The notes: a model not told the origin generated them from the sequence alone. 64,000 nt of DNA from Escherichia coli (GCF_044324875.1 NZ_CP172186.1), one strand, 5' to 3'. Shown: positions 37,792-43,385, numbered from the stretch's first letter. A program made the numbers and translations.

Positions 37792-40700
37792 TCATCGGCC
37801 GGGGCTGTGAGATTGTGCCTGTTGCAGAGTTTTTTCCTGCCTGTCCTCCGCCTTTTGGCTGTCAGACCACTCTTTCCAGGTCTGCTCAAAACCCAGAGAG
37901 CGGAAAAGCTTGTCCGGCTGCTCTTCCGGTTTGTGGATGGCGGCAAACAACGGGGAGTCCTGTTGCTTCAGGTGAAACTGCATCAACTGTGGGGCAGGAC
38001 GCTTAGGGCCGTCCGCATCCCGGTTGATGGCCTCACCGTAACCGGAAAACTGAAGGCCCCTGTCGGTCATGGCGTTGATGACCAGCTGACGGCTGTCCGC
38101 TGTCGGGGTGGCCAGTGCCGGGTAAAGGGTGCCGTTCAGGCGGACCACGCCCTGCATGTATTCGTCGGCGCTTTGTAACAGCAGCAGATCCAGACGCTGG
38201 CTTTGTTTGTCGACGGAGAAGATGAGCGGCGTCAGTGTGGCGGGCGGTGTTCCGTTAAGTGGAACCCGCAGTGCCGGGTCTCGCGGTGCAGCGGCTGGCT
38301 GGCGGTCCTCCCCCAGATACAGGGTGTCGGGTACTTTGTCGGGGAGACGTACATCCTGCATGAGCTGTGGCCATCCCTGCTGTAACAGGGTCATCATCTG
38401 GCGGAATGTGGCCGCCGGATATTCCCGGATGTACTGGCCTTCATGCGGGTTATCATGCGATACGCTGATCCCGTTACAGACCGGTTTCATGGTCCAGATA
38501 TTTCGCACCCATTCCGGTTTGCCCTGTGATGAAGGTGATCTCTCCCGGGCCTGCAATGTCAGCGTGACGGGGTCGCCTTTCTGGTGGTTTTTGACCAGTT
38601 CTTCCAGGCCTTTTCCCCAGTATTCCCGTTTGCCACTGCGGTTGGTGAGCTCCACAAAAAAGCAGCGCCCTTTTCCGGGCGCATACTCTTTTTCTCCGTA
38701 GTTTGTCAGGACGGCAGTCACACTTTCACCGGGTCTGAGTTTGCCGGGGGGCTCTTCCTCCGGTGTGTCGGGTTGCTGTGGCTGTGCACTGACAGCGACG
38801 TTTCCTGCTGACGATGACGGGGCGGCTGGTTGTTCCGGTGTGTCGGCCCGGGGGGCTTCAGCTTTTGCCGTGACCGGCGCTTCCGGATGCGGTGTTTCAG
38901 CCGTACTGCCTGCAGTTTGCTCTGTTTCTGCTTTCGGTGACACAGGGGGGGCCGGTTGTGCCATTGTTGTCTCTTCCGGTGACAGGCGGTTGAGTTCCGG
39001 CGTGGGTCTGTGGGTGACGATGGCATCATGCGCCATCCCTTTCTCCTGGCGGAGTTTTTCCAGCGCAGCCCTCTGGGTCGGGAGTTTCATGCGAACCTTG
39101 ATGTCGTATTCGACAATCAGTTGCATGGCTTTTTGTTTAAAGGCATCACTGCCGGTCAGCTCGATAACGCCGCCATAGAAATTGGTGGCCACAGCAAGGG
39201 CAGCCAGAACCTTTTTGTCATCCGCGCTGGCGCCATCCACCATTTCCAGACGGTTGAGTTTATCCAGGAATGCCGGTTCGCCGTCGACGCGGTAGAGCGC
39301 AGTATTGTCGGGTAACTCTTCGTGCTCAAGATTTTTAATAATCTCGTCCAGGTTGTGCCGCTGCGGACTGTCGGGACGGCGGGGCGCAAAGATAATCGTG
39401 TCCGGTTCCGTTGACGATGTGTCTTCCGGGCTGTTTTCCGGTGGTGATGGTGGTGCGACCTCCTCTGTTGCTGTTTCAGCCTCCGTGGGCTTTTTCTCCT
39501 GAATAACGGAAGGTTCTGAGGTGCGTGATTTCCCACCGGTCAGAAAACGGCGCAGACGGCTGAAAAGCGATGGCGTTTCAGGGTGGGCTGCTTCATTCGC
39601 TGTGCTGGTCTCAGTGGCAGACACAGGACGCTCTTCCTGCAGTTTATCTTCAGCCGTCGGTTCAGCGGTGGCCTGCCGGACTGGCTGAGTTTCTGCAGGT
39701 TCAGAAGGTGAGGCTGTTTCTGCTGTGCCGGTGTTGTGAACAGTGGCAGCAACCGTGGCATCGGCATTGAGCTCCTCAGGCGGTGCGTCACGGTTGTTAT
39801 CGGGGACGGCAGAGGCACTCTTTTCACTGGTATCCGTTGCAGACAGAACATCCTCTTCCTGCGGTTTATTTTCTGCCGTTGCTTCAGGGGTTGCCTGCTG
39901 AACAGGCTGAGTCCCGGCAGGTTCAGAAGGTGAGGCTGTTTCTGTTGTATCGGTGTGGTGAGCCGTGGTCATCACAGTGGCATCAGCGTTGAGGTCTTCC
40001 GCAAATGCGCTCCAGTCGTCAGCGCTGGCCATGGAGACCTGCAGTTGTTCTTCAGTCTGCGTTGTGGTGGTGTGCTGTGTCCCGGTCGCGTCGGAGACGG
40101 AGGTTTCCGGTGTGTCGTCACCTGGGGAGAGCTCTTCTGCCTGTACGCTCTGGTTGTCAGCGGTGGTGGCAGAGGCATTTTTTTCACCGGTATCAGCGGC
40201 AGGTATAACGCTCTCCTGAGGTTTGTCTTCTGCTGTTGGTTCAGGGGAGGACTTCTGAACAGGCTGAATCTCTGCAGGTTCAGGAAGCGTTCCTGTTTCT
40301 GCTGTGTTGGTGTTGTGAGCGGTGTCTGTACCTGTGGCGTCTGTATTGAGGTCTTCCTGGTCGCCAGCGGTAGCCGCAGAGGTATTCTCTGTGCCGGTAT
40401 CAGCGGCAGACGCAATATTCTCCAGTGGTTTATCCGGGGATAACGTCTCCGTAGTTACTGACTGCAGGGATGCATAGGCGGCATAGTCATCTTCATATGC
40501 CTGGTTTTCTGTCTCTTCAGTGTGGATGTCATAAGGCGTATCCGGTGTCGCCAGCACCGTTTCCGGGGCTGTGCTCTGTTTGTTTTCAGGGGACATTTGT
40601 GGCTTCTCATCTTTTACCGGTGTGAATATCAGGTTGCCGATCACGACAGCTTCACGGTGGTCGGCAGTGTCACTGTTGGGTGTGGGGATACCGATATGTT

Positions 40701-41823
40701 TTAACTGTGCGTTCATGACATGCTGAAAGTCGTCCCGTCCCCGGCTGGCGTCCAGGTCATTGAAATCGGTCAGTCCCTGTGCTTTTTCCTCCTCCGTAAA
40801 GGCCGGAATAATGACTTCGCCATTCGTGACTTCTGCGGCTTTTGTTGCACTAAAAACCCCCTTGTTAATTTCCCGTTGATGATCGTTGTCGGCACAGAAG
40901 ACAAAGGGGCTGTCAGTCCAGATTTGGCGGGCATTTTCTGCCACGGCAATCATATTGCCGGCATCAACTGTCATCAGAACCGGAAGGCCGGTGGCTTCGT
41001 GCAGGGAGGCGGCAGTAGCGTAACCTTCCGCAAATAACAGGGGACGGCCATTTTCCGGGGTTCCGAAGGTGAACCAGTTGCCGGTTTTCTCGGAGTCTTT
41101 CAGAATGCGGGCATCCTTCCCGCCGGTGACCGGAATACGCTGGTACGAACGTATTTCCCCCCGGCCGTTGCTGAAGGGAATAACCAGCTCATTTTTATTG
41201 TTCAGCCGCACGCCAGGCGCGGCCCGGATGCCCTTGCGCGTCAGGTATTCATGTGCTGTTGCCTGTGGCAACCCGTTAATATAGGAGCGGGCATACCGGG
41301 CCTGTTTGTTGTACTGTTGCTGCAGTTTACGTGCGTTATCATCGCGCTGTTGCTGAGCGAATGCCCGCAGATGCAGTCTGGCCAGAGGATCGTGTTGTTC
41401 TCCGCCGGAAAATACCCAGTTTGTGGGACTGTCATCGGCGCTCCGGTAGTCGCGGTACCAGCCAGCGGGGCGCCCATCAAGATAGGCTTTGTATGCGCCA
41501 CTTTTGGCCCCTTTTTTGTCATCCCGGGTGGCGACTCTGTGTATGGCGCCATCCATCTGTGGCAATCCCTGAATAACCAGCCCGGCGTTTTCCAGGACCT
41601 GAGCAAATTCGGTGACCGGATCGCCGGCATCCATCGACAGTTCCTGCGGCCGGGGTAACCAGCGCTCCAGCAGAGAAAGTTCGGTACCTGCCCGGGCATA
41701 CCAGAGTTTTTTTTCTGGATCCCATGCGACAGCTTTGCGGCCATTTAACGGGGGTACTGCATTTTTTACGGCTTCTGTCTCCTCAGGCGGGACAGCAAGC
41801 CAGGTACGATATCTGGACTTCAT
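37792..41823 (-). CDS. sogL: Conjugative DNA primase (Sog-like; Toprim domain, repeat-rich linker)
   Basis: 1343 aa, Toprim-type CADNDH acidic motif, position between traK and traL. Confidence 0.75.
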   Translation of the reverse strand: MKSRYRTWLAVPPEETEAVKNAVPPLNGRKAVAWDPEKKLWYARAGTELSLLERWLPRPQELSMDAGDPVTEFAQVLENAGLVIQGLPQMDGAIHRVATRDDKKGAKSGAYKAYLDGRPAGWYRDYRSADDSPTNWVFSGGEQHDPLARLHLRAFAQQQRDDNARKLQQQYNKQARYARSYINGLPQATAHEYLTRKGIRAAPGVRLNNKNELVIPFSNGRGEIRSYQRIPVTGGKDARILKDSEKTGNWFTFGTPENGRPLLFAEGYATAASLHEATGLPVLMTVDAGNMIAVAENARQIWTDSPFVFCADNDHQREINKGVFSATKAAEVTNGEVIIPAFTEEEKAQGLTDFNDLDASRGRDDFQHVMNAQLKHIGIPTPNSDTADHREAVVIGNLIFTPVKDEKPQMSPENKQSTAPETVLATPDTPYDIHTEETENQAYEDDYAAYASLQSVTTETLSPDKPLENIASAADTGTENTSAATAGDQEDLNTDATGTDTAHNTNTAETGTLPEPAEIQPVQKSSPEPTAEDKPQESVIPAADTGEKNASATTADNQSVQAEELSPGDDTPETSVSDATGTQHTTTTQTEEQLQVSMASADDWSAFAEDLNADATVMTTAHHTDTTETASPSEPAGTQPVQQATPEATAENKPQEEDVLSATDTSEKSASAVPDNNRDAPPEELNADATVAATVHNTGTAETASPSEPAETQPVRQATAEPTAEDKLQEERPVSATETSTANEAAHPETPSLFSRLRRFLTGGKSRTSEPSVIQEKKPTEAETATEEVAPPSPPENSPEDTSSTEPDTIIFAPRRPDSPQRHNLDEIIKNLEHEELPDNTALYRVDGEPAFLDKLNRLEMVDGASADDKKVLAALAVATNFYGGVIELTGSDAFKQKAMQLIVEYDIKVRMKLPTQRAALEKLRQEKGMAHDAIVTHRPTPELNRLSPEETTMAQPAPPVSPKAETEQTAGSTAETPHPEAPVTAKAEAPRADTPEQPAAPSSSAGNVAVSAQPQQPDTPEEEPPGKLRPGESVTAVLTNYGEKEYAPGKGRCFFVELTNRSGKREYWGKGLEELVKNHQKGDPVTLTLQARERSPSSQGKPEWVRNIWTMKPVCNGISVSHDNPHEGQYIREYPAATFRQMMTLLQQGWPQLMQDVRLPDKVPDTLYLGEDRQPAAAPRDPALRVPLNGTPPATLTPLIFSVDKQSQRLDLLLLQSADEYMQGVVRLNGTLYPALATPTADSRQLVINAMTDRGLQFSGYGEAINRDADGPKRPAPQLMQFHLKQQDSPLFAAIHKPEEQPDKLFRSLGFEQTWKEWSDSQKAEDRQEKTLQQAQSHSPGR
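39550..40450. repeat. Degenerate tandem coding repeats (~70-110 codons, at least three copies) in the primase linker
   Basis: Repeated LNADAT...ETASPSEPA.TQPV.QAT.E.TAE.K.QE blocks; mirrored by similar antisense ORFs; boundaries approximate. Confidence 0.6.
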
Positions 41824-41886
41824 GTCGTTCTCCGGGGATTAAAGATGAGGGCGTTGTGATACGCCGGGATGATGGACAAAAGAGGG

Positions 41887-42177
41887 CTATTCTGGTCCGT
41901 GCCATTCACGGGGTAATTCTGTGCGGTGTCGGTACCACCAGGGACGTCCTGATGCCTGCTTACCCTGAAGCAGGCTGTACAGACGTATACAGAGGGTGCG
42001 GACTGTCCAGCCGGAATATCCCAGGAGCATAAAAAACAGCAGAATGCCGCTGCACACCCAGAATGTCGTTTTTGACGGATACGGAAACAACAGCAGGTAA
42101 ATCATGGTAAACGGCAGGGGGACACCATAAATGTTGAGCGGTGGAGTTACATCCCGCCAGAAGCCTTCGCGTTTCAT
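41887..42177 (-). CDS. traK: TraK small inner-membrane protein
   Basis: 96 aa, two TM helices, stop/start coupled to traJ; by synteny. Confidence 0.45.
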   Translation of the reverse strand: MKREGFWRDVTPPLNIYGVPLPFTMIYLLLFPYPSKTTFWVCSGILLFFMLLGYSGWTVRTLCIRLYSLLQGKQASGRPWWYRHRTELPREWHGPE

Positions 42178-43385
42178 CGGGGGAACTCTCCGGCCGGGAT
42201 GAAGAGCGCTGCTTCTGATTTCTCAATGCGGTCGTTCTGATACATGGTCAGAACCTGATCCCTTATCCGCCGTTTTTCCTGACGAATGATTTCGTCAATG
42301 TAATGTCCCCATGTTGCATGGGATTGTCCGGAGAGCGTATTGCGCAGTTCGTCAGTCATGACGATGTATTCCCGGACAGCCTGCCTGCCGCCGTCATTTG
42401 TTCTGACCAGTACCTGCACCAGAATGAACTGTACGAGGGAAAGCGTGGCTGCAGCCATCGAATCCCTGATTTCAGGAGGAAACAATCCCAGCAGGCGGGC
42501 AAAGGTTTCTCCGGGTGATTTTGTGTGCATGGTGCCGATACAAAAGTGTCCGGTATTACCCGCCTGGACTGCGGCATCTGCTGTTTCATAATCCCTGATT
42601 TCACCGATACCAATGATGTCCGGATTACGGCGAACGGCAGAGCGAAGTCCTGCAGCAAAACTTTCCACATCGCGCCCGATTTCGGCCTGATGGGGAGGCA
42701 GAAGGTCATTCTCTCCGCCCAGAATGTATTCCACCGGATCTTCATAGGTCACTATTTTGCGATCGGGGAAATTTTTCAGAATGTGGCGATACAGTGCCGC
42801 CGCCAGTGTGGATTTCCCGGAGCCGGTTTCTCCGCAGATGAAGCCCAGGCCGGTTTTTCTGAGCATGGCATCCAGCAGATCCGGTTCAATATTCATAGTG
42901 AGGATGTCCGGAATATCTGACGGGATCACCCGCATGGTGACGGAAATGGCTTTTTCTTCTGTTGCCGATGTTCCCTGTATCAGGTGGCAGCGCAGGCGAA
43001 CACGCTGACCTCGTTGCAGGCCATAGCGACCGGAGGCATCTCCGCTGACCTGAATGGTACGATCCACGGGATGACCTGACAGAACCCGGGGAAGAACCTC
43101 CCGCCCAAACAGCTCATCACTCAGTGCCATCATGATGGAGGACGGAAGGGGATTTACGGATGAGCGAACCCGCCGTCCAAAGCGACTGACGGATACCGGT
43201 GAACCGCCGGTCAGATCAATATCACTGACGCGGTGGCGGGCACACCAGGCAAAAAAATGGCGAAACTCTTCTGCCGTAAAACGGGAGAAGGGGAAGGTAC
43301 CGAAGTCATCTGGTGATATCATTTTTCTCTCCTTCGGTGCTGACAAGAGGGCGCCAGCGCGATTTCTGCAGCGTAAATTCAGCAT
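42174..43385 (-). CDS. traJ: TraJ secretion ATPase (DotB/VirB11/PilT-class)
   Basis: 403 aa, Walker A GETGSGKST. Confidence 0.85.
   Translation of the reverse strand: MLNLRCRNRAGALLSAPKERKMISPDDFGTFPFSRFTAEEFRHFFAWCARHRVSDIDLTGGSPVSVSRFGRRVRSSVNPLPSSIMMALSDELFGREVLPRVLSGHPVDRTIQVSGDASGRYGLQRGQRVRLRCHLIQGTSATEEKAISVTMRVIPSDIPDILTMNIEPDLLDAMLRKTGLGFICGETGSGKSTLAAALYRHILKNFPDRKIVTYEDPVEYILGGENDLLPPHQAEIGRDVESFAAGLRSAVRRNPDIIGIGEIRDYETADAAVQAGNTGHFCIGTMHTKSPGETFARLLGLFPPEIRDSMAAATLSLVQFILVQVLVRTNDGGRQAVREYIVMTDELRNTLSGQSHATWGHYIDEIIRQEKRRIRDQVLTMYQNDRIEKSEAALFIPAGEFPR

Follow-up and report, generated by a model that had tools for sequence, protein, structure and literature searches.

A Sog-type primase gene in an MPF_I transfer operon

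The stretch of DNA analysed here (the window, 64,000 nucleotides from Escherichia coli, GCF_044324875.1 NZ_CP172186.1) carries on its reverse strand a long gene for a conjugative DNA primase, in whose middle part we describe an array of degenerate repeats (Table 1). At the DNA level the gene is 100% identical to its counterpart in NZ_CP100501.1 (pLH50-c-A), an E. coli plasmid typed as IncK2/Z, MOBP and MPF_I, in whose annotation the gene order is traJ, a 96-aa traK-like ORF, sog, a traL-like ORF and homologues of DotI and DotH. The same place between traK and traL, in a Dot/Icm-like MPF_I tra operon, is occupied by the window gene, and hundreds of copies of its allele are found in public databases.

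In the encoded protein, Pfam assigns DUF5710 to aa 6-57, followed by a Toprim primase domain and, with the start of the folded C-terminal region, an LPD7 domain. The Toprim_3 match (28.2 bits, cut-off 27.2) was detected only by scanning the N-terminal part alone, the Pfam scan of the full-length protein having missed it; the translation contains FAEGYATAA, and the EGYATA motif is typical of plasmid primases. Searches returned no family in NCBIfam and no meaningful sequence match in the PDB. In tblastn against IncI1-type genes annotated as sogL, aa 3-1343 were matched in two pieces with the middle skipped (71% of the query aligned, 64-66% identity), which, together with the LPD7 match, marks the C-terminal region as homologous to that of IncI1 Sog. 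Based on the Pfam domains, the plasmid match and this two-piece alignment, we assign the gene as the Sog primase of a B/O/K/Z-group plasmid of the I-complex.

The gene family and its two-product organisation are well known, as is tandem duplication in disordered linkers. Like the window protein, SogL/SogS of the IncI1 plasmids R64 and ColIb-P9 combine an N-terminal DUF5710 and Toprim primase with a C-terminal LPD7-containing region, are encoded just upstream of traL in the MPF_I operon, have an internal in-frame start at the codon that aligns with the probable one in the window, and contain a long, acidic, non-conserved linker. IncI1-type Sog proteins are shorter (1254-1255 aa against 1343 aa), the Shine-Dalgarno element at their internal start is stronger, and their sog gene is preceded by nuc, which is absent in the window. 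In the IncI1-type plasmids (L006), this gene for an EDTA-resistant nuclease lies directly upstream of sog, at the place that corresponds to 41824-41890, whereas in the IncK2/Z plasmid there is no nuc and sog follows directly on the traK-like ORF. Pri of the IncM plasmid pCTX-M3 and TraC of RP4 are, like window Sog, primases of conjugative plasmids, and the 1070-aa Pri also has a potential shorter in-frame C-terminal product (PMC6112013). The IncL/M-like and other primases sampled align with the N-terminal 27-29% of the query only (30-43% identity), and in TraC1, unlike in window Sog, the Toprim domain is C-terminal.

Table 1. Features of the sog locus, in window coordinates and in the order of the encoded protein
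Feature	Position	Strand	Residues	Basis
sog-type conjugative DNA primase gene	37792..41823	-	1343 codons	ORF, flanked by traK and traL in MPF_I transfer operon
Toprim primase domain, with EGYATA motif	40732..41034	-	264-364	Pfam Toprim_3, E 2.7e-6
Probable internal in-frame start, ATG (40596-40594) with GAGAAG at -12 to -7 (40608-40603)	40594..40608	-	M410	alignment
x1 block	40351..40431	-	465-491	x profile, E 7e-14
First y block, type a	40222..40350	-	492-534	y profile, E 8e-28; unit typing
x2 block	40132..40221	-	535-564	x profile, E 5e-15
z block, splits the array, with acidic-aromatic motif ADDWSAFAEDL	39994..40131	-	565-610	shuffle tests
Second y block, type b	39865..39993	-	611-653	y profile, E 2e-27; unit typing
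Crossover interval of the 222-bp deletion in CP070395.1, in the second y block	39916..39945	-		diagnostic-site mapping
x4 block	39772..39864	-	654-684	x profile, E 3e-15
Third y block, type c	39643..39771	-	685-727	y profile, E 2e-27; unit typing
x5 block, truncated, end of array	39574..39642	-	728-750	x profile, E 6e-12
Two near-duplicate antisense ORFs, non-coding	39570-39770 and 39783-39992	+		mirror the 222-nt repeat on the other strand
Short conserved basic helix just past the array, TPSLFSRLRRFLTG	39535..39576	-	750-763	AlphaFold
LPD7 domain, start of the folded C-terminal region	39043..39300	-	842-927	Pfam LPD7, E 2e-11

Anatomy of the repeat array

The original prediction, made from the window alone, was that degenerate tandem repeats lie in the primase linker at 39550-40450, with at least three related blocks of the LNADAT type. 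A degenerate array is indeed present inside the Sog-type primase gene, at aa 465-750 (39574-40434, reverse strand), and it includes three such blocks (the y blocks of Table 1). The predicted repeat length of 70-110 codons does not hold, the measured periods being 74 and 119-120 codons, of which the longer results from the interruption of the array by the 46-aa z block.

The periodicity is evident when the DNA of 39300-40700 is compared with itself, as the best ungapped identity over 120 nt reaches 82% at an offset of 222, 76% at both 357 and 579, 62% at 360 and 59% at 207, all of them multiples of three. In 200 codon-shuffled control sequences, the highest identity at any offset was 48% on average and at most 56%. 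Since a self-BLASTP of the protein returned the identity match alone, diagonal scoring and profiles were used at the protein level: the former gave offsets of 74, 119/120, 193 and 69, local alignments between pairs of y blocks scored 125-201, where shuffled sequences averaged about 40-45 (z = 11-22), and a profile made from the y blocks found each copy at E of about 1e-27. Tandem Repeats Finder reported nothing in 38000-42500, a consequence of the interruption and of a DNA identity between copies of just 68-80%.

According to the unit profiles, the array reads x1-y1-x2-z-y-x4-y-x5. The y block is 43 aa long, occurs in three copies and follows the pattern LNADAT...SEPA.TQPVQQAT.EPTAEDK, while the x block is looser, with 23-31 aa and the pattern KPQE..A.DT.EK.ASA... 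The units are not strictly contiguous head to tail, with z separating x2 from the second y block, and the array is therefore best described as interrupted and degenerate. We considered z as a decayed x or y unit and rejected this, as no significance was found at either the DNA or the protein level; its best short matches to the units are marginal, being reached by 6 of 500 and 37 of 500 shuffles.

Composition and predicted structure of the linker

As predicted from the window, the repeat blocks lie between the Toprim domain and the C-terminal LPD7-containing region, in agreement with the Pfam positions. The linker (aa 381-815) consists mostly of T, A, E, P and S, has a net charge of -63 and contains 2.3% aromatic residues; in the repeat region the corresponding values are -47 and 0.7%. 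AlphaFold, run on aa 340-870 with an alignment of 8 sequences, predicts near-zero secondary structure at a pLDDT <50 for aa 385-743, and it is more confident only where the primase domain ends, in a basic helix after the array and where the C-terminal region begins. Composition and this model, with its 8 aligned sequences, are the basis on which we consider the repeat region to be probably without stable structure. The helix (SLFSRLRRFL) is modelled for aa 740-761, where pLDDT averages about 75 by 10-residue block, and a similar basic sequence, SSFLDKARGLFTRKK, is found in IncI-type SogL.

All Sog homologues examined have an acidic linker (net charge -29 to -62, 181-550 aa), yet the linker sequences are unrelated; it is their character that is conserved and not their sequence. 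Published Sog polypeptides reportedly run much slower on gels than their sequence masses predict, a behaviour expected from a long, acidic, disordered segment. In our literature search we found no experiment on the linker of any Sog protein. Transposon data from pESBL indicate that the SogS coding region is needed for transfer; these insertions truncate the protein and may be polar, and so are uninformative on the linker itself.

All Sog homologues (L006, L009, L010) have short acidic-aromatic motifs in their linkers, which are otherwise unrelated. In the window they are YEDDYAAYAS (40467-40496, aa 443-452) and ADDWSAFAEDL (39991-40023, aa 601-611), on both of which AlphaFold places short, low-confidence helices; elsewhere we find DKDWREFEAEL and EEYEDYSAYQEL in the IncI-type protein, QEDYADYSHI in Serratia and LDDYADIRAQ in Citrobacter. 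As functional linear motifs, they are more promising candidates than the repeats. The sequences that flank the linker, IFTPVKDEKPQMSPENKQSTAPET at 40534-40638 (aa 396-430) and SPPENSPEDTSSTEPDTIIFAPRRPDSPQ at 39358-39456 (aa 790-822), are weakly alike (diagonal score 58, background about 40), which may be chance; a hydrophobic-F/Y-x-P element is kept at both positions in the homologues.

A probable internal start upstream of the repeats

In R64, sog gives rise to SogL (1255 aa) and, by same-frame translational reinitiation, to SogS (844 aa) (PMC6112013), and the sog gene of pESBL is likewise annotated with two products. The proposal that Sog-type primases make a shorter C-terminal product from an internal in-frame start thus stands for R64, and the start is conserved by position, while the product of the window gene is itself a prediction. 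In the window, the probable start is the ATG of M410, which is preceded by GATGAGAAGCCACAA and has a weaker, GAGAA Shine-Dalgarno-like element. M410 aligns exactly with M412 of the 1254-aa IncI-gamma/K1 SogL (L006), which has no other Met from aa 350 to aa 500. A start at M412, with TGAGGAAAAAACC before it, would yield 843 aa; as this length fits SogS, we matched M412 to the published SogS start. In 11 alleles from IncK2/Z-typed plasmids, the window's included, the M410 codon is ATG or GTG. Pairing with the anti-Shine-Dalgarno sequence amounts to -2.7 kcal/mol in the window, compared to -6.1 kcal/mol in the IncI-type gene.

Because M410 sits 55 codons upstream of the array, the repeats would belong to both products, and the short one would run from aa 410 to aa 1343 and carry the repeats at residues 56-341 of its own numbering. 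Transport of IncI1 Sog into recipient cells during conjugation is known from the literature.

Distribution, age and constraint

The repeats appear to be specific to the plasmid lineage of the window. The profiles detect neither x nor y blocks in IncI-gamma/K1 SogL, in a 1515-aa homologue from Citrobacter or in a 1078-aa homologue from Serratia, and a search with the y profile finds no y blocks in primases of the pCTX-M3 Pri and RP4 TraC type. The IncI1-type linker (341 aa in L006) differs from that of the window in that its sequence is unrelated and has neither x nor y blocks nor repeats of short period. The y profile, run against 1.84 billion representative proteins, gave 11 matches; among the five of these that were fetched, four are Sog proteins or frameshifted fragments of the window lineage, and one is an unrelated repeat protein matched by chance. 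The Citrobacter homologue (L009, NZ_CP073009.1, Citrobacter sp. BIDMC108, locus ~900-1700) is encoded by an unannotated gene of 1515 codons, and its linker contains about 250 aa of sequence that is neither of low complexity nor repetitive (GRETITLFHGSPAAFSAIDSEKIGLGQNLVGRGFYTDTS...) and looks like an inserted extra domain, for which a Pfam scan found no match.

Judged by their divergence, the copies are old and only weakly constrained. Paralogous blocks differ by a dS of about 0.6, and the y blocks have a DNA identity of 74-80%. Omega between paralogues amounts to 0.24-0.39 in y and about 0.7 in x; between alleles, the y blocks reach 0.44-0.47 and the x blocks 0.62-0.63, compared to 0.11-0.14 in the primase domain and 0.26-0.28 in the C-terminal region. 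Across nine diverged units, 12 of the 43 positions of y are invariant. By these values, y does not evolve neutrally, and it may have some sequence-specific role.

The y blocks of six alleles group by type (a, b, c and d) and not by allele, and there is thus no concerted evolution. Their order is a-b-c in the window, a-d-c in L011, a-b-d-c in L003 and c'-d-b' in L008, and L002 and L004 combine a with a hybrid unit; whole units are thus occasionally reshuffled between alleles.

Copy number

The comparison of repeat number across homologues has a divided outcome: related alleles have two, three or four y blocks, while the IncI-gamma/K1, Citrobacter and Serratia homologues have none. The allelic differences in length are all in register. 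The CP070395.1 allele is exactly 74 aa shorter, the OQ534118.1 allele is longer by 120 aa (an x tail, z and y), further alleles have a 12-aa duplication within x2, and in the 1463-aa allele z is duplicated along with a y block. In the deletion allele, the diagnostic bases switch from those of unit b to those of unit c inside a 28-nt interval, which is the longest perfect identity between the two units (39916-39945 and 39694-39723) and in which the DNA repeat search had found an identical 21-mer. This reads as the signature of homology-dependent unequal crossing-over or slippage.

Variants of this kind are a small minority, as follows from a blastn census with one y block. It gave 1339 places in 445 PLSDB records; without the chance match in one of these (Acidiphilium), 1338 copies are spread over 444 plasmids, on average 3.01 per plasmid. 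Of 59 plasmids sampled, 58 have exactly three; if only two, three and four copies occur, records with four exceed those with two by six. Full-length sequences among 134 proteins fall into size clusters of 1343, 1353 and 1338 aa (three y blocks), 1269 and 1281 aa (two) and 1458 and 1463 aa (four). The number of y blocks thus looks nearly fixed, with rare accidents, and not tuned. With alleles diverging by as much as about 17%, its near-fixation might be due to selection on length or valency and not to a low rate of recombination.

Interpretation of the array

We consider it likely that the repeats are an old, lineage-specific, degenerate tandem duplication in the disordered acidic tether of a Sog-type primase, where they serve mainly as bulk spacer. 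This tether would connect the N-terminal Toprim primase domain with the C-terminal LPD7-containing region and, in the short SogS-like product, would make up the N-terminal third. Unequal recombination or slippage would have duplicated a 74-residue unit, made of x and y, at a time when the present alleles had not yet split, and its copies would have drifted thereafter under weak constraint, with rare in-register unequal crossovers, also between different alleles, still deleting, adding and reshuffling units. The likeliest role is a physical one, as a long, negatively charged and extended spacer whose composition would be kept and whose exact sequence and repeat structure would not. The analysis shows how the repeats are built, their restriction to the lineage, their age and levels of constraint, the census of copy number and one crossover site, whereas disorder, the use of the internal start and the spacer function are what we infer.

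The array shares with other degenerate duplications in disordered linkers a low-complexity acidic composition, predicted disorder, relaxed constraint, in-frame copy-number polymorphism by unequal recombination, and restriction to a lineage. It differs from this general class in its unusually long units (74 aa), its age and its near-fixation at three copies, and in nothing qualitative; it is an ordinary lineage-specific duplication in a disordered spacer. Our literature search found no description of these repeats.

An unlikely alternative is that the array is one of short linear motifs, where each y block (core SEPAxxQPVQQATxEPTAEDK) docks a partner, for instance a recipient factor or part of the I-type secretion system, with multivalent binding through the three copies. 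The purifying selection on y and not on x, the 12 unchanged positions, the persistence of four unit types across alleles and the stability of y at three copies would all fit such a role. The motif is nevertheless missing from IncI1-type Sog and from other homologues encoded in these same transfer operons. A low omega can also result from compositional constraint alone where a region is acidic and disordered, each unit supplies a small sample of 43 codons, and no docking partner is known. More speculatively, and with little probability in our estimate, y would be a lineage-specific motif that forms a three-copy, multivalent docking array on translocated Sog, aimed for example at a Dot/Icm-like I-type secretion adaptor or a recipient-cell factor, and the reshuffling of cassettes would be selected variation.

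It was also proposed that repeat number may tune the length of the linker, so that the distance spanned from the primase to the C-terminal domain would depend on copy number, and plasmids would differ in the number they settle on. Natural alleles with two, three and four y blocks do remain open reading frames, and the 1458-aa form with four copies represents a cluster of 160 member sequences. Against this, the census is nearly fixed at three even across sub-lineages in which the y blocks are just 83-95% identical to those of the window, Sog homologues function with repeat-free linkers of between 181 and 550 aa, and no phenotype is linked to variants in y copy number; we regard such tuning as improbable.

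That the repeats instead belong to the DNA as such or to the opposite strand, as antisense genes or a regulatory repeat, can practically be dismissed, since the antisense and out-of-frame ORFs that overlap the region (66-162 codons) are set against repeat offsets and allelic indels that are all multiples of three in the sog frame, an absence of internal stops in that frame in 12 of 12 related alleles (1078-1463 aa), substitutions with omega <1, and the fact that the antisense ORFs merely mirror the repeat. Both near-duplicate antisense ORFs at 39570-39992 do exist, and their attribution to the repeats was correct, as they are shadows of the 222-nt repeat.

As a disordered spacer, the array matters little beyond annotation, where it accounts for these spurious antisense ORFs. 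It also explains the range of sog lengths in B/O/K/Z-group plasmids (1269-1463 aa) and the alignment breaks in the middle of the gene, and the order of units (a-b-c, a-d-c, a-b-d-c) could be a simple marker for tracking these resistance plasmids. Were y to be a binding motif, it would offer a clue to the recruitment of Sog or to its action after transfer, which are poorly understood.

The C-terminal half and other sog alleles

A second low-complexity stretch lies at 38719-39006 (aa 940-1035). It contains 21% P, is rich in A and E, has no aromatic residues and a net charge of -9, and shows weak self-similarity of short period, at offsets of 19 and 35.

The C-terminal approximately 300 aa that follow (37825-38720, aa ~1035-1332) are 36-42% identical to the C-termini of MobQ4 relaxases encoded on 4-7-kb plasmids of E. 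coli and Klebsiella, a relationship between MobQ4 relaxases and SogL that has been mentioned earlier (PMC6856555). The match suggests that this MobQ4-like domain may be the part recognised by the I-type transfer machinery. Within it, the DNA at ~37920-38520 (aa ~1101-1300) is 60-82% identical between the window and three other IncK2/Z alleles, compared to 85-99% in the flanking bins, which looks like an allelic replacement by recombination. The dS between alleles is 0.09-0.18 in the N-terminal domain and 0.40-0.42 in the C-terminal region, and by this contrast the sog alleles are mosaics.
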